Shown here: positions 1 through 63,203 of the stretch, one piece after another
How positions within the stretch are numbered: the first letter of the stretch is position 1
Layout: every line of letters starts with the position of its first letter
NCBI GenBank assembly: GCA_965287045.1
Contig: OZ336870.1
Span: forward strand, 113,212,001 to 113,276,000
Length of the DNA stretch: 64,000 bases
Direction of reading: 5' to 3'
DNA from: Carcharhinus amblyrhynchos
Lineage: Eukaryota
The notes under the pieces: model-generated
Seen by the model: only the letters and a program-made list of their open reading frames with translations
Told to the model about the DNA's origin: nothing
The model's database searches: none
Program-made: the position numbers and the translations under genes

Positions 1-929
1 TTAATGCTGTTGTATTAAGTCTTTAAAGTCAAAAATAAGCTATAATTAATTAGTTGATTAGAATTACAAAATACGCGACGAGAGATGTGTATTTAATTCT
101 CATCATGACATACTCAGAGTCAAAATCGAGAGTATAAGGAATAAAATGGCTTACATGCTTGATGGGCTCCAATATCAATTACTCAGCAGCCAAGATTTTA
201 ATTAAATATAGGCTGTTGAGATTAGTGAGCTGTATTCCTGATAGAAAAATGAGTTATTTCCATGACCTGCAAACAGCAGGACATCTAGATGTTAAGATAC
301 TCATTCAGATATAATCATTACCATCAGCGATTGAAGTTGAAAATATGTAACTGTAATGTTTGTCAAAAAGGTTAAGGCAAGTAATTAGTAACTAGCTGCT
401 GTCCTGGTTCGTAACCCTCCACTTGATCCATGGAGCAATTTGCAGTAGATTTATTGTATCCTTTCTCCAGATGCAGGAATATCAATGAATAACTTCTGCA
501 AAATCTTAACTCAACACGAGTTGGGATTTTTTGATTTAGGGACAACTAATGTTATTCTAAAATTAGTAGATCTTCCTTGCTGCTATCAGGTATGCAAAAA
601 AGATTTGCTTTTTGAAAATGAAGACTATTTGTCACAATAGAGAGGTTGTAGAACACAACATGCTCAAAGCACTTATCACTCAGAACAAGCAGCGTTGAAT
701 GGTAATGGGCAACAGTGAAACAGGATGAAGGTAGTTGGAGCGAATATCTTCCTAAGGGTAGTTCAGGCTTGTATTATTATTTTCAGGGTATTGGTCAGTA
801 TACTTCAGCACAGTTCAACTCTGTCTGGAACAACATTTTTCTTTTTCTAAACACGCTGTAGAATGAAGAAAGATGACAATAATCCCTGGAAGCCAAAGAC
901 ATATGCTGAAAATCTCCATCCTCTTTTAG

Positions 930-1040
930 GGTTGGGATTTTCCGGTGCTGCTGGAACTGAATGGTGTTTTGGCTGGAACTTTAATTTGTCCGTTCTCATT
1001 TGCAGCAGAGTGAACATGGATGAGATTGGAGAATCCATCT
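930..1040. mobile_element. Short non-autonomous TIR element (Harbinger-like MITE), degraded
   Basis: Left end GGTTGGGATTTTCCGG and right end TGGAGAATCCATCT resemble the terminal motif shared by many short elements in the window; the interior resembles the copies at 34151 and 44662. Confidence 0.5.
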
Positions 1041-1524
1041 TGTAATCAAGCTATGCAGCAGTGAACACATGAGAAGATTGCTGTAATGGAGGAGCAAGGT
1101 CTTCCTCACATATAACGTATCATGAATCAAAATCCAGTGTAAATGTGGACAAAGATGAAAAATACTGACAGTATAAATTGCTTTCTTTGCAGCACAAAGT
1201 CACCAAACATCCCGAGGTAAACCAAAATATTCTTTGAAAACTTGAGAAATGTCTAAAAAATGTTTTTTTGGCACCCAAGTCTACTTAATGATTCTAAGGC
1301 AACATTGCCTCTTTAAAATGTGAAAAAGACTTGATAAAGATATACTATTGTATCTGAAAGAAGAGAACTTTTGTGTTTAACATCAATGCAGAGCTCCTCA
1401 AGTAGAAAATGGGACAATTCAAAAAGAACTATTTCCATTAAAGAAATTACATTAACTTGGGAGAAATGACCGTATTGAAAATGATGCTTCATTGTTTCCG
1501 TGCTTAGCACTTAACATCTAACCA

Positions 1525-1842
1525 GGGTGGCATAGTAGAATGATGGTAGCACTGCTGCTTCACAGCTCCAGGAACCTGGGTTCAATTCCCAGCTTGGGTC
1601 ACTGTCTGTGTGGAGTTTGCACATTCTCCTCATGTTTGCATAGGTTTCCTCCAGGTGCTCTGGTTTCTTCCCACAGTCTAAAGATGTGCGGGTTAGGTTG
1701 ATTGGCCATGCTAAAATTGCCCCTTAGTGTTCTGAGATGCATAGGTTAGAGGGATCAATGGGTACGGCCCGAGTGGGATTGTGGTGAGTGCAGACTTGAT
1801 GAGCCAGATGGCTTCTTTCTGCACAGTAGGATTTCTATGATC
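1525..1842 (+). mobile_element. HE1-type V-SINE, full length, CR1-like tail
   Basis: tRNA-like head (GGTAGCACTGCTGCTTCACAGCTCCAGG...GGTTCAATTCC), V-domain (GTGGAGTTTGCACATTCTCC...GGTTTCCTCCAGGTGCTC), tail ending TTTCTATGA. Confidence 0.9.
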
Positions 1843-2073
1843 TGAGTTTTAAAAATCTCCTTTTGCATAAAAATCATTCTTGTAGCAACTTACATAATAT
1901 GAAAGCGTATTCCAGCTTGACTAAGCTATTAAAACAATTCCATTGTCAAGTAAATGCGCTGGAAATTTTATTATTGTACATAACATAGTAAAGTAATAAC
2001 AGAATTGGTGGTTTAATGATCTTTGACCTGGAAGCAGTACATTCAGGAAAATTACTGATTTCTTTAAAATATT

Positions 2074-2875
2074 TGTGGAATCTGTACTTGGTTTTAAGAA
2101 TGTTTGAAAGGTGTTTTTAAGGGTTTACATCAGTTGTAAAGGTATCAACTGTAGTGTTGTTGGGTATAATGAATACTGGCCCATGTGACCTGAACTGGTG
2201 ACCCTTGACCTGGAATTTAACAAATGAAAGCTGTTATTCTTATAAGGAGCTGCTTTTGATTTAACCCTCAATTTGTTAACTTAATTTATTTGGTTATCCA
2301 AAAAAAAGTACAAGGGAGAGTTGGAGGAAGAAGTCGACCACCTTACAGATGCAAGAGCTTTCGGAGGCACTGCCCAAGCTGGCTAAGAAGATCTAAAAAC
2401 AGTTCCAAGACTCTAAAAGTTGGGTGTTTTATCAGAAGTGCCCAAACCGTGAAGGAACTCTGGATAGCTGCAGCATCAGAACCTTTGTGGCCTGAGGGAA
2501 AGAGGGACTGTACATGTATGCCTTACTGTTGATAATCAGGCTCATGAAAGCTGCCGTCCATTGGAATCCTGAGCTACACCATGTGAATAAAGAACAGGAA
2601 TAACAGAGCAGTAGCTACACACTGCCACATGTCTGTGGGGAGCGATGCAGGTGCTTGTGGTTGTATAAGGTATATATTTGTTGCATCCACTATTTAAAGT
2701 GAACTTTACCCTTTTATTTGCAGCTTATTTGTCTGTTAATTCATTAGTTACATTGATTCTGATACACGTTCAAATAAAATTTACAAAAAATGAAACCTGA
2801 TTGGTAATTTCATTTGGTGATCATTCATTAAACTTGGTTACTTTGTTTTAGGGTTTCCCCATTGGCATCAGAGCA
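2074..2875. mobile_element. Possible old solo LTR
   Basis: About 800-bp block from TGTGGAATC to about GGCATCAGAGCA, with an internal AATAAA near the end and general resemblance to the LTR at 11787. No TSD visible. Confidence 0.25.
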
Positions 2876-3363
2876 ATGGCAATGTCCAAGTTTAGTTCAG
2901 ACCATGGAGTGAAATGATAATGGAGTGAGGTGGGAATATTTTCAAAATGAGCATTTCATAAGAATGGAAATTAAGAGCAGAGGGAAAAATTGTTCAAAAC
3001 AGTTTAGTTGAAAGTATAAGTTGATAAAGAAGATGCTAATTCATAATTATTGTTTTCCTTAAAATTAGAATGACAGTCCTTGAAGAGATAATGGTTCCAT
3101 TTGTTGACTCAGACAAGCAATCATCAGTGATTTCAAGGAACTCACTTGAGCTCATAATGTTACAAGCTGAGGCAGCATTGGAGGTAAATTATGGCAGTGG
3201 AACAAGAGCAGCGCAAAACAAATTACAGTGCCAGAAGCTTTTCTGGAAAATTAACATATAACATTGACCAAATTACATTCCCAAACAATGCAACATATGA
3301 TTTAGGAATTGCTTGCTTCTAATGGACATGTCTAGATTTGAATCTCTGGGGAGAATTTGAACG

Positions 3364-5788: not shown

Positions 5789-8346
5789 ATAAGAACATAC
5801 GACCTAGGAGCAGGAGTCGACCATGTGGCTCCTCAAGCCTGCTCTGCCATTCAATAAGATCATGGCTGATCTTTTCGTGGACTCAGCTCCACTTACCTGC
5901 TCGCTCACCATACCCTTAATTCCTTTACTGTTCAAAAATTTATCTATCCCTACCTTAAAAACATTCAATGAGGTAGCTTCAACTGCTTTACTGGGCTGGG
6001 AATTTCACAGATTCACAACCATTTGTGTGAAGAAATTCTTCCTCAACTCAGGGGATTAAGGGTTATGGGGACAACTCAGGGGATTAATGGTTATGGGGAG
6101 AAAGCGGGAAAGTGGAACTGAGCAGCGACAGATCAGCCATGATCTTATTGAATGACGGGGCAGGCTCGAAGGGCTGATGGCCTACTCCTGCTCCTATTTC
6201 TTATGTTCTTAAATCTGCTTCCCCTTATTTTGAGGCCATGCCCCCTTGTTCTAGTTTCACCTGCCAGTGGAAACAACTTCCCTGCTTCTATCTTATCTAT
6301 TCCCTTCATAATCTTATGTTTCTATAAGATCTCTCCTCATTCTTCTGAATTCCAGTGAGTATAGCCTCAGCCTACTCAGTCTCTCCTCAAAAGCCAACCC
6401 TCTCAACTCCGGAATCGACTTAGTAAATCTCCTGTACACCCCCTCCAGTGCCAGCATGTCCTTTCACAAGTAAGGAGACCAAAACTGTGCACAGTACTCC
6501 AGGTGTAGCTTCACCAGCATCTTATACAACTGCAACATAACCTCGCTGTTTTTAAACTCCATCTCTCTATCAATGAAGGACAAAATTCCATTTTCCTTCT
6601 TTAATTACCTGCTGCACCTGCAAACCAGCTTGTTGTGCTTCATGCACAAGGACACCCAGGTCCCTCTGCACAGCAGCATGCTGCAATTTTTTGCCATTTA
6701 AATAATTGTCCATTTTGTTATTACTAAATAATAGTATATTGTTATTCCTACCAAAATGGATGATCTCACATTTATCAACGTTGTACTCCATCTGCCAGAC
6801 CCTCACCCACTCACTTAGACTACCTATACCCCTTTGCAGACTTTCAGCATCCTCTGCATGTTCTGTTCTGCCATTCATTTTAGTGTCATCTGTGAATTTT
6901 GACACACTACACTTGGTCCTCAACTCCAAATCATCTACATAAATCATAAATAGTTGCGATCCCAACACTGATTTCTGAGGCAACCACGAGTCACTGATTG
7001 CCAGCCAGAAAAATACCCATTTGCCCCAACTCATTGCTTTCTGTTAATTAACTAATCCTCTATCCATGCTCATACATTACCTGTAACACTGTGCACCTTC
7101 ATCTTATGTAGCAGTCTTTGGTGAGGCACCTTGTCAAATGCCTTCTGAAAATCCAGAATCACCACATCCACGGGTTTCCCTTTGTCCACTGCGCATATAA
7201 TGCTCTCAAAGAATTCCATCAAATTAGTCAAACATGACCTTCTCTTCCTGAACCCATGCTGCATCTTACTAATGGGACGGTTTATATCCCGATGTCTTGC
7301 TATTTCTTCCTTGATGATAGATTCAAGCATTTTCCCCACTATAGAAGTGAAGCTAACTGGCCTATAGTTACCCGCCTTTGTCTACCTCCTTTTTTAAACA
7401 GTGGCACCACGTTTGCTGTTTTCCAATCTGCGGGAACCACCCCAGAGTCCAGCAAATTTTGGTAAACTACCACTAGTGCATTTGCTATTTCTCTCACATC
7501 TCTTTTAGTACCCTGGGATGCATTCCATCAGAATCAAAAGACTTGTCTACCTTTAGCTCCATTAACTTGTCCAACACTACCTCTTTCGTGATAATGATAG
7601 TTTCTAGGTCCTCTGCCATAGCCTTCCTGTCATCAATTTTTGGCATGTTATTTGTGTCTTCCACTGTGAAGACTGACACAAAATACCTGTTCAGTGCCTC
7701 AGCCATTTTCTCATTTCCAGTTATTACATCCCCCTTCTCATCCTCTAAAGGACAAATGTTTATTTTAGCCACTCTTTTTTGATTTATATATTTGGAGAAA
7801 CTTTTGCTATCTGTTTTTATATTCTGAGCTAGTTTACTCTCACAATCCATTTTTTTTCCTTTATAGCTTTATTCGTGGCTTTCTCATGATCTTTAAAGAT
7901 TTTCTAATCCTCTAGGTTCTCACTAATCTTTCCCATTTTGTATGCATTTTCTTTCAAGTTGATACCCTCCTTTATTTCCTTAGACATCCATGATTGATTA
8001 TCTCTTTTTCTACAGTCCTTTCTTATCACTGGTATATAAGTTTGCTAAGCACTGTGAAAGATCACTTTGAAAGTCCTCCACTGTTCGTCAATTGTCCCAC
8101 CATAAAGTTTTTGCTTCCAGACTACCCTAGCCAACACCTCCCTCATCCCTTTGTAGTCTCCTTTGTTTAAGCACAATGCACTGGTATTGGATTTTACCTT
8201 CTCACGCTCCATCTGTATTTAAAATTCAACCATATAGTGATCATTTCTTCTGAGAGGATCCCTAACTACAAGATCATTAATTATTCCTGTCTCATTACAC
8301 AGGACCAGATCTAGGATAGCTTGTGCCCTTCTAGGTTCCATTACAT
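5789..8346 (-). mobile_element. Older CR1 LINE, about 2.5 kb, 5'-truncated, frameshifted ORF2
   Basis: Successive minus-strand ORF fragments give LDFQKAFDKVPH, SVLGSQLF...KFTDDTK and WQMEYNVDKCE; the 3' UTR and tail lie at 5789. Interrupted at 6051-6211. Confidence 0.95.
6051..6211 (+). mobile_element. Young CR1 (subfamily A) 3' end inserted in the older CR1
   Basis: GGGGATTAAGGGTTATGGGGAG...TTTCTTATGTTCTT closely matches 32672-32815; the host CR1 resumes at AAATCTGCTTCCCC. Confidence 0.9.
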
Positions 8347-39927: not shown

Positions 39928-40101
39928 GGGTGGGATTCTCTGGCCCCACTGGCAGCACATCCCAGCCTGTGGATTTCCCGATGGCATGGAGTGGCTTCAA
40001 TGGGAAATCCCATTGACAGCAGGGAATCTTACCAGCAGTCAGCGGCATGCCGCCTCCCGCCACCAAGAAACACGTGGCTGGGAAGCCGGAGAATCCCACC
40101 C
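39928..40101. mobile_element. Harbinger-like MITE
   Basis: 17-bp TIRs with 1 mismatch (GGGTGGGATTCTCTGGC / GCCGGAGAATCCCACCC); central palindrome TCAATGGGAAATCCCATTGA. Confidence 0.85.
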
Positions 40102-40410
40102 CCTGTGGGTTCAGAGTACATTTTCTTCAGTGTCTTGGAAGAGATACGAGTTGGATGGAAAGCATGAAGTGAATGTTGAGCAATTCACTGGAAGAGCACC
40201 ATTAGCAATGATGCCAGTCCCAAGCGGAGAGCGAATCAAGCCAGCAGTAACTCCTAATTGGTTTATGTATCCATGGGGATATTGTTGGGGTAAAGGGATA
40301 ACGGGAATCTGAATCATTGTCTTGTGTTTGTATTGACACCTTTCCAACCTTTTATGTAATTCATTTTTCTTGCTTTAATTAATGTGTTATTCTTTGTATT
40401 AAAGTCAATG

Positions 40411-41388
40411 GGGGCAATTTTACTTTTTTTGTCTAAGTTTGGGCGGACTTGAAACTAGGAGAGATTCAGATCTGTCTTTTGGGCTTGTTTGTAGATCCCC
40501 CCCATACGCACTCTGCCTGCAACAATATCAGCGAGACTGTTGCTTACTGTAGAAGCCTGTGGGCTGGATCAACGTGCCCAAAACCCTGCAGAGGGAGGTA
40601 GTGCACGTGGACAGGCCTCTGAGGCTGTACACATATACATTAGCCCGTGGCCCGAGATATAGCCCCCGCCAACCCCCTCCTCCCCTCCGCCGCCCAGACT
40701 GATCGCAGACCCCCTCTACCATCCCCCACCAATCGATGGACCTGGCACCCTGCCCCCCAACTGCAGAGTGGCAGCGGGCCCCCTCTCCCTCCCTAACCCC
40801 CCCCCCACCAACCACTGCAGGGTGGCAGTGGGCCTCCTCTCCCTCCCTACCCCGCCGACCAATAGCTGCAGAGTGGCAGTGGCCTCCTGTCCCTGTCTCC
40901 CCCCACCAGCGATCCTTGCAGAGTGACAGTGAACTCCCTCCCCCATTAACCCAGCCTTCTGGCACTACCTGGTGGGCAATGCCCAGGTGCAAGGGTGGCA
41001 GTGCCCTTGGACCTGACTCTCTTGCCCTCGGCATCCTCAGGGGGCCCCCATGGTCTCGGGTTCCACTGACAAGTTCAAGTCATTTGCTCCCCGTTCAAGG
41101 GGAGAATGTTTATTCCTCGCCAGCCTGAATCTCTCCAGGCCAGGTCATAAAGGAGGGGTGAACTCAGACGATTGAGCGCCAGGCTCACTAAGCAGATGTA
41201 AAACAGCAACAAAATAAATTTGAATGCATTAACCTGCCTCTTGCCCATTTCCAGTGAGAGGCTGGAAATCTGGTGCTCATAGAATGGTGCCAGTCATGAA
41301 AACAGCACCAATTGCACTAAGTGCTTTAGGCCTCACTTCACCATTGTGTCTCGCCCCAAAACAGGTGCAGCACAACGGTAAAATTGCC
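40411..41388. mobile_element. About 1-kb GC-rich non-autonomous TIR element
   Basis: Perfect 11-bp TIR GGCAATTTTAC / GTAAAATTGCC; internal C-rich minisatellite; interior related to 42744-43781. Confidence 0.75.
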
Positions 41389-42916
41389 TAAGTCATGAAA
41401 AGGAATGTAAAAAACTAAGGTGTTTCTGAATATCTTTCACTGATTAATGTGGCTGTGTGGTAATTATTCAAAATCCTGTGAAATAGAAATAAGGGGGATG
41501 CATACTTCATACATGGACTTCATATAAAGTATTCATATAAGATAGTTCTTATCTGGCCGGGTCTTTAAATGTTTTTCCTTATGTGGATCTGACTTTGGGT
41601 TTTCCACGATACACTGACATGCAATGCCATTTTCTAACAAATACTTTGAGCTTCTCTCAGCTGGCATGGCAGTAACTTATGCCCTCCTCACCTTGCTGTA
41701 CAATATTTTCAAAGATTGTTCAATGAATTTGGGGGAACCATCACTACCTTGCTCTGCCATAAGCAAACAGGTTAGACTAGATTTGTGTAAAATTGAGAAG
41801 ACAAGGTTGTAGAAGTCCTAACCCCATTTTTGCCAGTCCAATATTAGCCATTGAGGGAAGGAAGTGAGATTTGATTCACGCAAGAGGGAAATCTGAACTA
41901 GCAGGACCATGTAAATTGAGTGCTGAATTCATTTTGGCCATTGGAAGAATGTGTAATGTGGGAGGCAATTATGGATTTCACGTAAACTCTTTTGAAAGGC
42001 AGATAATGTCTGTTTAATTGTCATGATCTGAAGTTTTCTAAATCCCCAACTTTCGAAACTATTTAAAAAAGGCTGCATCTCTAAGTGTTAAAATATCTGC
42101 TAAATTGTGTTAATTAACAGACTAGCTAATGTTGCATCCAATTGAACAGTTTCAATAAAGTTCTTTGTTGACATTTCTCTAAGGGATATTCATTATGGAC
42201 GCCTGGCTGACTTTCAAAAGCTTTAATTATCTCAGTATTGGGTTCTGAGTTCACAGTTTGATTTATGGATTAAAGAGGTTGTTAAAGTACTCGGGGATGA
42301 ACAGATTTTTTTTAACAAAGATGAATCATTTGAGGAGATTTTAAAGTTTTCATGCTTTCACGAATGAACATTTTTTCACTATTTTTTCACATTTTATGTA
42401 ATGAGAACCGTATTAGCTTTTTAGAAAATGTATTTATTTCATCATCATATGACTCCTGAGGTCTACCCATGGTGAATACTGGGTGAGGAACTATCAAGTT
42501 GGTGTGGAAGATGTGAGGCCATGGTGGATGGGGGGGGTAATGAGTTACCATTGAGTTTGCATGGAATTTTGGAAGAGCCTACCTTTTAACCAGCTTTTTA
42601 ACCAGCCTGCCTTCACATCCGCCTATCTACGTGACTGCCTACGCACTACCTCCAAGCTGGTGGATCTGATTTCATCCTCACTACCAACTTCCCCCGCACT
42701 CCTTCCACCACCAGCTCAAGTAACACTCACAACTTGACATACTGGGGGCGATTCTCCCAAAAATATTCTCAGTGCAGAATTTGCATAAAAATTGGAGGAA
42801 CTCCCACTTTTTTTTAGTGTGATTTTCCAAATGAATCTCCCACATTCTGTGAATCACCGAGCCTCAACAACATTCAAAATCTGGGAGCAGGGCCATTCCT
42901 GCTGAACAGGTCGGCA

Positions 42917-43055
42917 CAGTAAAAAGTCTGACAACACCAGGTTTTAGTCCAACCGATTTGTTTGATAATAGACTCACAAGCTTTCGAGGTTTCCCTCTTC
43001 GTCAGGTGAATGGAGAGTTCTGGCCTCAGACAGAGCATATAAAATACCCACATCA
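42917..43055 (-). mobile_element. 139-bp Penelope-like insertion with 14-bp imperfect TSD
   Basis: Flanked by TGAACAGGTCGGCA (42903-42916) and TGAAGAGGTCAGCA (43056-43069); contains a minimal hammerhead motif. Confidence 0.75.
42974..43009 (-). ncRNA. Minimal type I hammerhead ribozyme motif
   Basis: Minus strand reads UCAC CUGACGA A GAGG GAAA CCUC GAAA GC UU GUGA: conserved CUGANGA and GAAA cores, stem I UCAC/GUGA, stem II GAGG/CCUC with a GAAA loop, and palindromic AGCU in place of stem III. Confidence 0.8.
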
Positions 43056-44661
43056 TGAAGAGGTCAGCAGCATAGTGCTGAGTGGATATTTCAGCACCGA
43101 GATTGGCGCATGTACAGTAGCCCCACATTGCTGCCCCCCCCCCCACTCCCCAATTGCTGGCATCTCCTGGCAACCCTGACCTCCCCCACCCAGATGGCCA
43201 ACCCCCAATCACCCCCTCCCCCCCCTACCCTTGATCCCAAGTGCAGAGTGGCAGCAAGTCCCCACACACCCAACAATTGCCCCGTATAGGCCCCACCCCT
43301 TAGCACTGCCTGATGCCTGAAGTGCCATGGTGTCCCTTGGGATATTGCCACTTTGCCCCTTGAGCAGTGCCAGTGGGTCAGGCTGGCATTGCCATATTGA
43401 CAATGCCCAAGGGGCACACCGCATTACCCCTGACTTCCTGGGGGGGGGGCCTCTATGGCCTCCCTTCTATTCAGCAGGATTGGGCCACTAGTTCCCCACT
43501 AACGGGGAGCTGTTGTAAACTCCGCTGGAACGAACCACCTCAAGTGGGGACGGGGTTGGGGGGGTGCAGTTGGGGGTTGGGGGAGACGCAATCGGGTCCA
43601 GAGACTTCAGTCCCAGGCCCGCTAATGGGACTTAAATGTGAATTTTAATATTTAAATCAGCACACGGAGCTGACAACTCCAGAAATCCTGCCCCCAGAGA
43701 TGCGCAGAGGCCATGCCACCCAGTGGGGACCCCATTAAACAGCCTCCGCTGATGTCTCCTGACCCAGGGAGAGTCGCACCCATTGTTTTTTACCAAGGTG
43801 AGTCCAGCTACTTGGGAAATTTCATGACCCGACCTATCCATCTTGATAATAAAAATCCAGAACTCCTCAACCAGAAGTAGTTTTCTAAAAGACTTTCATA
43901 ATAATAATTTTCTGAGGCAGACCTGCTTAGAATTAAGGGCTGGAATTCTCTGAACTTGCCTACAGCTGGGATTTTCCAGTCCCGCTGATTGTTAAACTAT
44001 ATTTTTCCCCATGGCCATTTAAGTACTGCAGCAGCATAGGACATCCTATTTCATGAGCAGCAAACTTCCAATGAGGAGCAGCAGTGAAAATGATTGGCAA
44101 TTAGCCATGGTCCACAAGGGGTAGGCATTTCTTTGTGTGTGTGGAAGAGAATGAGAGAGACAAATGGTTACATAGATTGAGGGTCACCAGTCCACACAAA
44201 ACATGGAGCAAGGCAAAGAAGCAGGCACCCATGAATTAACACAGCCTGCATCGTGAATAAACCCACACCATGGCCTTCATTCTGCACCACATTCTAGCCA
44301 ATTAACTAACTGATGATGGGAGTGTGTTCGTATTATTATTTTCCTCAAATTTGGAAACTTTGGAAGTAGCAACTGGATCAGTACCTAACTGATGTAGTAG
44401 ATGCCTCCATGGCTACAAAGGTCGCCGATTGAGTTTAAATTTTGCAGATCACTGTGAAAGTGCATTGAAGGTCCTTTCTAGCAGAAGTATTAAAACAATC
44501 CCATTTTCATAGCAAGCTATTTATTGAGAAAAATGTTCTGTGATAAGTAGTTAATCATGAAAATACCATACCAGACCATTCTTCTCCTTAGCCAGCAGTA
44601 GTTTTGTAAAAGACTTTTACATGACAAATACTTTTTTGAGGCAGTCCCGCTAAGAAATAAG

Positions 44662-44797
44662 AGTTGGAATTCTCTGACCTTGCCGACAGCTGGGATTTTC
44701 CAGTCCCGCTACAGTGAATGGAGATCCGGTTGAGCGCTAAGTTCTCCATTCTCTCTAGCAGTGGCAGCATAGCTTGCAAGACTGGAGAATTCCAGCC
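44662..44797. mobile_element. Harbinger-like MITE
   Basis: TIRs AGTTGGAATTCTCTG / TGGAGAATTCCAGCC; AAG on both flanks (44659-44661, 44798-44800). A truncated sister copy lies at about 43938-43988. Confidence 0.8.
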
Positions 44798-45636
44798 AAG
44801 AGGTTCATTTTAATGCAGGAAATATTGATGATGTCAAGAAAGTGGCGATTCCATTATGTTCATTTTTGTATTTTTGATGAATCTTTCAGTTACAAGCAAC
44901 ACACAGGTATTTCAAATAATATCACCAGCTGGGATTTACTGGCAGCACAGGTGGGTCACCATTGGGACAGCAGGTTCTCTGGCAGCATAGCTGGTGAGCA
45001 ATGTAAATGGCCATTGACTTCACCAGTTAACGGCAATCTAACTCTGTCACCAGAAAACCTGCTGTGGGAAGACCGGCCGCCATTTCTGACTGACTTTGTT
45101 TTGAGGATTGACAATGATGACTTAAAATAGCAAAGTTACAGTGAATTCCATGGCCTGAACTCATCCGAAGAAATGACTTTTCATCTGGCAGATCCATTGC
45201 ATTCGTAACATAGGGCACGATCTTTTGGGAAGATTGTGGACATAATGTTTCAAAAATATTATCTTCAGATTTAAGATTAGTAACTGATCATCATGGAATT
45301 CATCTTATTGCTAAGCTGACAGTTTTAAAACAATGGTAATAACACAACTGGGAATGGGGAAGGGAATGACCCATCACTTAATCTTTTTTCTTTGCTGTGA
45401 CGAACAAGTTCAAGATGTTAAAATACCTGAACAGAAAGTAGCTGTCAGTAAAGATATGACTGCATGACGATCAAAAATTTAATTACTGCAGCCACTTGGC
45501 AGACAATTTACAAAAAATGGCCAGGAGGTGTGGGAACAATGAGATCTACAAAGGGCATTGTTAGGAGTTCTGAAGTGTTTGCTGAAAACTCCAGCTCAAG
45601 AGTAGACCAAAATACCTTGTACATCTGGTATGAACA

Positions 45637-46079
45637 CTGCTTGACAAAGGATATAACATTTCCACCAATGTCATTATTCAGGCCGAGACTTGTTCAACAG
45701 ACTGGCATCAAGGAAAAATGTTGGAATTGGCTTTGAGTGAAGGCACAAAGAGTTGCCAGTATTCTTTGTAAAATTCTCATAGGGACAGATGGACTTTAGG
45801 CGTGGGCAGCTTCTAACTGTGAAATGGAAGGCGTAGATAAAACTCCGTATGCTTTCAATCATTCACTGTCCAGAAATAATGGAGGCAGCTGCCAAAAAGT
45901 GTACGAGTGCTCAGGCAATTATACTGCAACCATGGGCAAAGTTGATCATGATGATCTGCCAGTTGCTTTATTGGAAACAAAATACATGAAATGGCACAGA
46001 AAAGTACTCTTCCCCTTTCATTTCAGAGGAATAACAAAAAAACGCACATCTAAACATTCCAAGTACTTGTGTTAAAGGG
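45637..46079 (+). pseudogene. Fossil piggyBac-family transposase fragment with probable right end
   Basis: Three frames stitch to LLDKGYNI / YSGRDLFNRL...RHKELP...GQMDFRRGQLLTVKWKA*IKLRMLSIIH / NYTATMGKVDHDD...KYMKWHRKVLF, collinear with piggyBac motifs; ends AAAGGG then TTAG. Confidence 0.8.
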
Positions 46080-60413: not shown

Positions 60414-61313
60414 ACACACTTTACTCTTTGAAATTGACTTTTCTTTTAAAAAGTGGATGATGTGCTGTAAAGATGGCCACCAAAGGTCAGGTGTCATTTC
60501 TGTATAGACAAAGAATTAATTCGGGGGCCTGATTCTCAGACCTCTTCAAACAGCCTGGAGGAATCATGCTGTCTGGTGATTACTAGACATCCTGTCTTAG
60601 CCCTCAGTGATGGACAGTACAGAGCCTTGGACGTCATCAGTCGTTGCTTAGACATCTTGCCCCAAGATCTCCACTGTGGCTGCCATCCTTGCAGTATTGG
60701 CCTGAATTGCACACATTGTCGGCACCCTCTCCTGTGACAGAAGCCTGGTGGATTTCTCCAGATGGCCTTGCAGTTGAAGGAAGGTTCCAGAAACCCCTTC
60801 CTGATATGCATGGTTTTACTTTTGCAGCTGTAAAAGTGATCCCCAGAGGATCAACATCTGCCTTTGGAACAACCGGCTCCTCTGACTGCCCGCTTACTTG
60901 GAAGTTCCTACCTCAATCCAATGTGTAGCAGCAACTGTGTGGTCAGAAAGTGCCCAGAAGCCTAACTGCGAACATTTACCACTGAGGGGAACGTCTCAGT
61001 ACTGGTGGATGGTTGCAGGTGAAGGCAGTGCTAAGAATTCAGTGTCATCCCCTGAGCTGTGGTCCAGCGTTCTCTGAGGGGTTGGACGAGGGTCTATGAT
61101 GCCAGATGGTCCAGCCTCATTGCATGGTGACCTGGGAGGAGAAAGGTCATGGGTTAGCTTTTGGGATCCTCAGTGGTATAGAGAATGTTAAACTTGCTTG
61201 AGATATGGATAAATGTGCTTAGACTATCATAACCTTGCAATTGGTTAGTGATTGCTCTTGGTCTTCCCCTGCAATTCCCAGGGTCCTTTTTTCAAAGGGG
61301 GTAAGGACCCTCA

Positions 61314-63203
61314 GTGTGGGGTATGCCCCATCCGTCTTCCATCGCTCCCTCCTGTTATGAACAGTCTTATCCTTCAGAGAAAGCTTTAGAAAGCTTTAGA
61401 TTGGCTAGGAGGGAGTTGAAGAGGGAGTTAAGAAGGGCTAAAAGAGGACATGAGATGACCTTGGCTGATAGGATTAAGGAGAATCCTAAGGCGTTCTATA
61501 GGTATGTCAAGAACAGAAGGTTGGTTAGGGCAAGATTAGGGCCAGTTATAGACAGTAGAGGGAAGTTGTGTGTGGAACCGGAAGAGATTGGAGAGGCATT
61601 GAACCAATATTTCTCTTCGGTGTTCATGCAGGGGGACATGAATGTAGCTGTGGAGGACACTGGGGTGCAGGGGTGTAAAATAGAAAGTATTGCAGTTGAA
61701 ACCGGGGATGTGCTGGATATTCTAGAGGGCTTGAAAATAGATAAGTCCCCTGGTCCGGATGGGATTTACCCTAGGATTCTCTGGGAGGCTAGAGAGGTGA
61801 TTGCAGAGCCTCTGGCTCTGATCTTCAGGTCATCGTTGGTCTCTGGTATAGTACCGGAAGATTGGAGGACAGCGAATGTTGTCCCATTGTTTAAGAAGGG
61901 GAACAGAGACTTCCCCGGGAATTATAGGCCGGTGAGTCTTACTTCTGTTGTGGGCAAGGTTTTAGAAAGAATTATTAGGGATAGGATTTATAGCTATTTG
62001 GAGAGTAATGAATTGATTAGAGACAGTCAGCATGGTTTTGTAGCAGGTAGGTCGTGCCTTACTAACCTTATTGAGTTCTTTGAGAAAGTGACCAAAGAGG
62101 TGGATAGGGGTAAGGCAGTTGACGTGGTATATATGGATTTTAGTAAGGCGTTTGATAAGGTTCACCATGGTGGGCTTCTGCAGAAAATGCAGATGTATGG
62201 GATTGGGGGTAATCTAGGTACTTGGATCAGGAATTGGCTGGCAGATAGGAGACAGAGGGTGGTGGTTGATGGTGAATATTCGTCATGGAGTTCGGTTACG
62301 AGCGGTGTGCCTCAGGGATCTGTTTTGGGGCCACTGCTGTTTGTAATTTTTATTAATGATCTGGATGAGGGTATAGTTGGGTGGATTAGTAAGTTTGCTG
62401 ATGACACCAAACTCGGTGGTGTGGTAGATTGTGAGGAAGGGTGTCATAGTTTGCAGGGTGACTTAGACAGGTTGCAGAGCTGGGCCGTGAGGTGGCGGAT
62501 GGAGTTTAATGCAGAGAAGTGTGAGGTAATTCATTTCGGTAGGAGTAACAGATGTGTTCAGTATAGGGCTAATGGGAGGACTTTGAATAGTGTGGAGGAG
62601 CAGAGGGATCTAGGTGTATGTGTACATAGATCCCTGAAGGTTGGGAATCAAGTAGATAAGGTAGTTAAGAAGGCATACGGTGTCTTGGCGTTTATTGGTA
62701 GGGGGATTGAATTTAGGAGTCGCAGCGTCATGTTGCAACTGTACACAACTCTGGTGCGGCCGCACTTGGAGTACTGTGTGCAGTTCTGGTCCCCACATTA
62801 CAGGAAGGACGTGGAGGCTTTGGAGAGGGTGCAGAGGAGGTTTACCAGGATGTTGCCTGGTATGGAGGGGAGGTCCTATGAGGAGAGACTGAGGGATTTG
62901 GGGTTGTTTTCGCTGGAAAGAAGGAGGCTAAGAGGGGATCTTATTGAAACATATAAGATGATTAGAGGTTTAGATAGGGTGGATAGTGATAGCCTTTTTC
63001 CTCGGATGGAGAATGCTAGCACGAGGGGGCATGGCTTTAAATTAAGGGGTGGTAGTTATAGGACGGATGTCAGGGGTAGGTTCTTTACCCAGAGGGTGGT
63101 GAGGGATTGGAATGCCCTGCCTGCTGCGGTTGTAAATGCGCCTAGTTTGGGGGCGTTTAAGAGATCTATGGATAGGTTTATGGACGAAAAGGGATTGGTT
63201 TAG
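61314..63203 (+). CDS. CR1 ORF2 fragment: complete reverse transcriptase domain, endonuclease domain missing; first ~20 codons come from flanking DNA
   Basis: Motifs KSPGPDG, NYRPVSLTS, SQHGF, YMDFSKAFDKV, GVPQGSVLGPLLF, KFADD and RPHLEYCVQFW. The listed start is a GTG in flank, so expression is not implied. Confidence 0.9.
   Translation: MWGMPHPSSIAPSCYEQSYPSEKALESFRLARRELKRELRRAKRGHEMTLADRIKENPKAFYRYVKNRRLVRARLGPVIDSRGKLCVEPEEIGEALNQYFSSVFMQGDMNVAVEDTGVQGCKIESIAVETGDVLDILEGLKIDKSPGPDGIYPRILWEAREVIAEPLALIFRSSLVSGIVPEDWRTANVVPLFKKGNRDFPGNYRPVSLTSVVGKVLERIIRDRIYSYLESNELIRDSQHGFVAGRSCLTNLIEFFEKVTKEVDRGKAVDVVYMDFSKAFDKVHHGGLLQKMQMYGIGGNLGTWIRNWLADRRQRVVVDGEYSSWSSVTSGVPQGSVLGPLLFVIFINDLDEGIVGWISKFADDTKLGGVVDCEEGCHSLQGDLDRLQSWAVRWRMEFNAEKCEVIHFGRSNRCVQYRANGRTLNSVEEQRDLGVCVHRSLKVGNQVDKVVKKAYGVLAFIGRGIEFRSRSVMLQLYTTLVRPHLEYCVQFWSPHYRKDVEALERVQRRFTRMLPGMEGRSYEERLRDLGLFSLERRRLRGDLIETYKMIRGLDRVDSDSLFPRMENASTRGHGFKLRGGSYRTDVRGRFFTQRVVRDWNALPAAVVNAPSLGAFKRSMDRFMDEKGLV

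Follow-up and report, generated by a model that had tools for sequence, protein, structure and literature searches.

The window, a stretch of 64,000 nt of Carcharhinus amblyrhynchos DNA, carries a hammerhead ribozyme motif inside a short insertion that interrupts an older repeat. What kind of element left this insertion, how was it integrated, and does the ribozyme do anything where it now lies? The features involved are listed here from left to right.

42744..43782, no strand: older, high-copy TIR-like host element, with arms at 42744-42758 and 43767-43782, interrupted by the insertion
42899..42901, plus: left half-site CTG of the palindromic target (TG at 42900-42901), from sequence and family motif
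42904..42915, plus: left TSD copy, 12 bp as read from the motif; 14 bp (42903-42916) if ambiguous bases are added
42916..43043, minus: ribozyme-bearing arm, 128 nt, 98-99% identical to the best other copies
42974-43009, minus: minimal type I hammerhead motif, predicted cut 42978/42977, putative from sequence, fold and family
43044..43056, plus: inverted arm, the last 13 nt of the element tail, whose final letters are the A and T of the ORF's ATG
43057..43068, plus: right TSD copy, differing from the left copy at 2 positions, of which one is a CpG transition
43071..43073, plus: right half-site CAT of the palindromic target (CA at 43071-43072), from sequence and family motif

The initial annotation had proposed a single 139-bp segment bounded by a 14-bp duplication (42903-42916 and 43056-43069, 12/14 identical) within an unrelated TIR element. 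The insertion is indeed flanked by a TSD, but it is not a single segment: it consists of two arms in opposite orientation that together span 141 bp. The longer arm, 42916-43043 on the minus strand, corresponds to pLTR positions -165 to -37, counting the G of the ATG as 0. The duplication is likewise present, but its length is most likely 12 bp rather than 14 because the outermost letters agree with the ends of the element too. The surrounding host element was recognized correctly and has 15-bp inverted ends. Searches with it gave 2,683 and 1,887 candidate matches genome-wide, and other copies are 71-88% identical. Among 38 host copies examined, 17 aligned on both sides. Thirteen of these are insert-free and hold the duplicated 14-mer once, and the remaining four aligned at unrelated offsets. 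The duplication is therefore a true TSD, and host copies already containing the segment, a possibility that the initial annotation had raised, were not seen (13/17 lack the insert). The left half-site CTG may stem from CpG decay in the host element; at the equivalent of 42899-42901 other host copies read CCG, CCA or CTG/CTA. A second, related host-type repeat with internal units of about 50 nt lies at 40660-41050.

To identify the inserted sequence, we considered its other copies. A genome search with the insert segment gave 1,369 candidate matches, with 98-99% identity for the best, and longer copies extend upstream of it into a reading frame for a reverse transcriptase (RT) and a GIY-YIG endonuclease (EN). 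Where copies lie in tandem, the repeat closes with a tail that itself finishes in the ATG of the ORF, giving pLTR-tail-ATG-ORF junctions. Some copies stand head to tail in units of about 3,025 bp, and the frames of these are broken. One copy, L078, contains an 881-codon open frame whose first ~19 codons read through its own inverted arm, and the repeat at its 3' end shares 92% identity with the window arm. About 862 codons of the PLE ORF run without a stop on the minus strand of this locus (711-3293), with only the first ~30 absent. L078 is itself a two-armed insertion within a tandem repeat. Its closest named proteins come from sharks (78-90%), then turtles. Family copies, as distinct from the stump in the window, combine in a single ORF a PLE-type RT plus a GIY-YIG that is C-terminal and has CCHH cysteines. 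Pfam recognized RVT_1 alone in the L078 protein, the GIY-YIG model giving no match there; the GIY-YIG of the family was read from motifs and from PF01541 on homologues. The segment thus belongs to the pLTR of an ORF-bearing PLE and its inner ends are ragged, which bears out the first of two origins suggested earlier, a severely 5'-truncated Penelope copy. The window locus is almost certainly the stump of an abundant Penelope-like element, and among the contigs of four runs compared the family also occurs in other organisms. A CX2-5CxxC linker lies between RT and EN in the family ORF. In the available part of PMC8557442, this linker defines Neptune and is shared with Nematis. We call the family Neptune-type by this linker, as a provisional clade name.

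Some further copies and neighbors deserve mention. At L250/L251 (G000:C8:124401000-124420999), full-length PLE units with a period of about 3,025 bp are arrayed head to tail to either side of a central stretch, on both strands; their frames are broken, the longest being 365-467 aa. At L238:1385-1600, four or five tandem units of ~60 nt each consist of the PLE tail and the first ORF codons, and these short units resemble slippage between start sites. The window also contains a 632-codon open frame for a LINE-type RT at 61305-63203 on the plus strand, which is CR1-like by its motifs, and shorter pieces at 6570, 10312, 18891, 21890, 31917, 34709 and 48145.

The hammerhead at 42974-43009 is as the initial annotation described it. 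The minus strand carries the letters it gave (UCAC-CUGACGA-A-GAGG-GAAA-CCUC-GAAA-GC-UU-GUGA), all core nucleotides are intact (the conserved core CUGANGA ... GAAA .. UH is present), and the proposed 4-bp stem I and 4-bp GAAA-capped stem II both appear in the MFE fold. The remnant of helix III is the palindrome AGCU, and the predicted cut between 42978 and 42977 agrees with the core numbering. Both a G10.1-C11.1 pair and an extra nucleotide after position 9 are present. The MFE of the motif is -9.7 kcal/mol (z -2.05), equalled by 9 of 200 shuffles; folding the whole 139-nt insert revealed no excess of structure (z -0.02). An Rfam search of 40000-46000 returned no hammerhead family even at E 10, only two chance matches, and the bare core pattern occurs 9 times in the window against 5.4 expected, which is not above chance. 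The exact 36-nt motif, by comparison, has 1,224 copies genome-wide and its reversed control none. We judge the motif real because of these family copies, the core pattern and Rfam giving no support.

Across the family, the core pattern is matched by 140 of 197 segments in a set enriched for exact copies, and 139 of those 140 motifs have GC at 15.2/16.2. Stem II differs between subfamilies in both sequence and length while its pairing is kept. Among 14 variants, which were hand-picked and are mutually related, three of the four stem II pairs are altered on both sides, pairing is kept in 93.8% of helix cells, and the 9 cells altered on both sides all lie in stem II; given this choice of variants, the shuffle test on them does not yield a probability. 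This covariation points to selection on the ribozyme in the replicating element. Family arms run through the predicted cut position, -98, and of 55 arms chosen independently of the motif not one ends within 3 nt of it; therefore, the RNA that is copied appears to be uncut. Inner arm ends cluster instead between -133 and -129, the hammerhead's 5' edge, with 12 of 94 within 5 nt, against one to five in each of the next seven bins beyond. That edge is quasi-palindromic. Four partner arms end at -120.

The two-armed layout turned out to follow a strict rule. The first 100 motif sites listed in genome order fall into 84 insertions. In all 50 two-armed insertions with both outer ends classifiable, exactly one end is tailed and the other tail-less, with end types at L122, L183 and L111/L112 corrected by hand; the rest of the 84 are single-armed, eroded or clipped by the locus edge. 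The tail measures 31-47 nt, mostly 36-42. In an older subfamily that was selected on its tail, the partner arm is tail-less in 11 of 11 classifiable cases. The window copy obeys the same rule, with an extremely short arm. Single-armed copies with a TSD account for 11 of the 85 targets described below, so two visible arms are not required. Among the first 100 sites listed, motif pairs on opposite strands number 15 and same-strand pairs 1. The latter is part of a three-armed insertion at L195:584-1152, where two same-strand hammerheads lie 370 bp apart. An inverted arm with a tail at one end is in itself a known layout, described in the available portions of PMC3846280 and PMC8557442.

Targets were rebuilt for insertions with a callable TSD, and those with eroded ends or no TSD were dropped. 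The discovery set, where CA(G/T) outside the TSDs was first spotted, contains 49 targets from 90 loci (89 plus the window); the validation set contains 36 targets from 159 other loci that played no part in spotting the motif. TG-N16-CA centered on the TSD is found in 31/49 discovery and 22/36 validation targets, and TG-N16/17-CA in 40/49 and 33/36, relative to 5.4% at random window positions. Most often the target reads CTG..CAG. It is present at the true center in 73 of 85 targets but in only 2-13 of 85 when the center is shifted within the same flanks, and in 66 of 78 after similar contexts are merged. Half-sites on the tailed and tail-less sides are alike in make-up (of 65, CAG 45 and 45, CAT 10-11, CAA 6 and CAC 3-4). 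A motif-free alignment of the 24 targets whose maximal TSD is exactly 12 bp has C at +3 in 40 and A at +4 in 38 of 48 half-sites. The target is absent from 12 of the 85 young targets. In the older subfamily, 23 of 30 loci gave no callable TSD and the full target occurs in none of the seven that did; use of the motif may be confined to the young family. Certain host repeats took independent insertions at similar sites (L105 and L115; L122/L163/L167/L195; L013/L168/L197/L242), as is expected if those repeats carry the target motif. The window insertion site fits TG-N16-CA.

How would such insertions be made? Direct observation covers family membership, the two-arm layout, the duplication, the empty sites in host paralogues, the target motif and the one-tail rule; from there we infer nicks, priming, joining and gap filling. 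The GIY-YIG endonuclease would cut 2 nt 5' of CA(G/T) on each strand, leaving 3' overhangs of 12-13 nt. Each overhang would pair loosely, over ~1-6 nt, with uncut element RNA, one priming at the start codon to give the tailed end and the other ~38 nt upstream to give the tail-less end. At the window locus both cDNAs would have halted early, at 13 and 128 nt, and then been joined, and gap filling would have produced the TSD. With nicks so placed, arm starts fall at -2 (between -6 and +4) and at -40 (between -45 and -33). Target bases past the putative nicks match the RNA at 37-75% over the first six positions and mostly at 21-36% thereafter. Anchored on the motif, the mean contiguous match between overhang and RNA is 1.1 and 1.3 nt, compared with 0.33 by chance. 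The naive junction overlap, 2.2 nt on average, overstates priming homology. Loci picked by a guessed tail-plus-ORF junction pattern are mostly plain tailed ends, and in them the tail-side overhang match is biased to zero. The excess of overhang matches makes it likely that loose pairing lets each overhang prime on the RNA. The symmetric target and the one-tail rule both point to a pair of nicks 12-13 bp apart, each priming a cDNA, likely made by a dimer. We consider it quite probable that the window locus is a 141-bp PLE stump in TG-N16-CA and that it arose in one event, when the protein of the element, probably acting as a dimer, made two nicks 12 bp apart, one per strand, each of which primed copying.

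A dimer is the simplest reading, and judged from sequence it looks the same as one enzyme nicking twice. We lean slightly toward a concerted dimer. With the same element and target, it is also possible, though in our view doubtful, that events were sequential: one enzyme nicks and primes an arm, a later nick follows with the same preference, and the inverted arm arises by self-priming or template switching. The available text of PMC3846280 explains inverted junctions by self-priming, proposed for rotifer PLEs, and that of PMC8557442 places second-strand cleavage after TPRT. Within our data, the two start points are uncorrelated (Spearman -0.07, p 0.58), so there is no sign of a rigidly coupled pair, and 12 of 94 arm ends lie within 5 nt of the ribozyme's quasi-palindromic 5' edge, a pile-up. 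However, both outer ends adjoin a nick and match the target overhang, as expected if each is target-primed, and the nick distance is near-fixed at 12-13 bp between symmetric half-sites. For the family as a whole, we hold it an even chance that it encodes a dimeric, loosely sequence-specific endonuclease-RT that reads CTG-N16/17-CAG, makes cuts in both strands separated by 12-13 bp and starts two cDNAs simultaneously, each from its own site on the RNA.

The initial annotation also suggested an independent, non-autonomous retrozyme-like family, a fixed short unit spread via ribozyme-cut RNA. The top BLAST copies do seem to share both ends, and one same-strand pair exists, 370 bp apart. Yet those shared ends are the limits of the query, and the copies continue into the pLTR and ORF; inner ends are ragged, from -130 to beyond -664, with 0/55 unselected arms stopping within 3 nt of the cut; in the window the copy is a monomer; and the first 100 sites listed hold 1 same-strand pair against 15 on opposite strands. 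We find this origin very improbable. A retrozyme at the window locus itself was rejected, the locus being without tandem units that each carry a complete hammerhead and without a fixed ribozyme-cut monomer length. Nor do we give much credence to selection keeping the window ribozyme in working order, for instance as a dimer that cleaves a host transcript in trans. In favor of this, the core is complete, and two monomers can pair in principle. The MFE dimer, however, swaps stems I and II and lacks the AGCU helix, the AGCU duplex alone is worth -2.5 kcal/mol, and the locus holds one hammerhead motif with no second sense copy. Published metazoan monomers, as far as the available text goes, were inactive (PMC4209133) or needed the PLE protein (PMC11167929). 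Intactness is expected at the age of this copy, to which 1,223 others are identical. The initial annotation had allowed that an intact motif beside a TSD with two substitutions could be chance, and at the family divergence of 4.1% the probability is 0.22 for 36 intact nt and 0.26 for at least two differences in a 12-bp TSD. The window arm departs from the commonest family letter at 1 of 128 positions. An intact ribozyme here is unremarkable, being what the age of the copy leads one to expect. Most likely the window hammerhead is a passive, lone copy that came along as part of the pLTR.

The locus is an ordinary PLE stump, and the target rule of its family is a modest, testable novelty. Our search of openly accessible papers, with passages of PMC3846280, PMC8557442 and PMC12602865 among them, found no description of a palindromic PLE target or a fixed stagger, and a search on shark, Penelope and hammerhead together found nothing. 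The origin of PLE inverted repeats, the one-sided tail and the second strand are called undefined in the accessible part of PMC8557442, and later integration steps are left unvalidated in that of PMC11167929. If the family does encode such a dimeric enzyme, a single mechanism would account for tail, inverted pLTR and TSD of PLEs, and the family would represent a retrotransposon that integrates by obligate twin priming. The symmetric target, near-fixed 12-13-bp stagger and strict one-tail rule lead to exact predictions of nick positions, substrate and the RNA site for each strand. L078, a copy with a nearly complete, undisrupted ORF, makes an in vitro test practical.

In LINE-1 twin priming, a second target nick primes a second cDNA, and the result is an inverted 5' part. 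The inverted piece of LINE-1 is an upstream, non-overlapping part of the same RNA, whereas the arms of the shark PLE start within 40 nt of each other and overlap. Comparisons with published systems refer to the available portions of each source. Metazoan PLE pLTRs carry minimal hammerheads (Cervera and De la Pena 2014, PMC4209133), and the hammerhead described here adds nothing beyond that description. Shared features are type I, a short helix I, the extra nucleotide between 9 and 10.1, G10.1-C11.1, palindromic 15.2-16.2, location in the pLTR, and mostly single truncated copies with some opposite-strand pairs. The shark motif differs in a stem II of only 4 bp and in its cleavage triplet, CUU, and sharks are not named in the part of that paper available. 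Non-LTR retrozymes (bioRxiv 10.64898/2026.07.22.740005) similarly have a type I hammerhead of PLE origin in a short copy without protein, but they repeat a fixed unit in tandem, every unit with its own ribozyme, whereas the window copy is a single truncated arm.

Insertions of EN+ PLEs (PMC3846280, PMC8557442) resemble those of the shark family in their inverted, 5'-truncated arm, 30-40-bp tail at one end, short TSD and partial tandems. The shark one-tail rule is strict by comparison (50/50), and the shark TSD is near-fixed at 12-13 bp and framed by a palindrome, whereas PMC8557442 describes a variable nick distance and a microsatellite bias for Neptune-type linkers. A parallel in mechanism is offered by the green anole's Poseidon element, PAc (Frangieh et al. 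2024, PMC11167929). The PAc protein acts on both strands, cutting and extending each; it takes unprocessed RNA as template and is predicted to form a dimer. PAc prefers AT-rich DNA (ATT), in contrast to TG-N16/17-CA, and its ORF starts inside the ribozyme rather than at the tail end. In vitro, neither primer-template homology nor a strand difference in start site was seen for PAc, whereas the shark family has an excess of overhang matches. PAc and the shark family nevertheless share two start sites that bound the tail, cutting and extension of both strands, uncut RNA and a predicted dimer, the shark side of this likeness being as proposed above.
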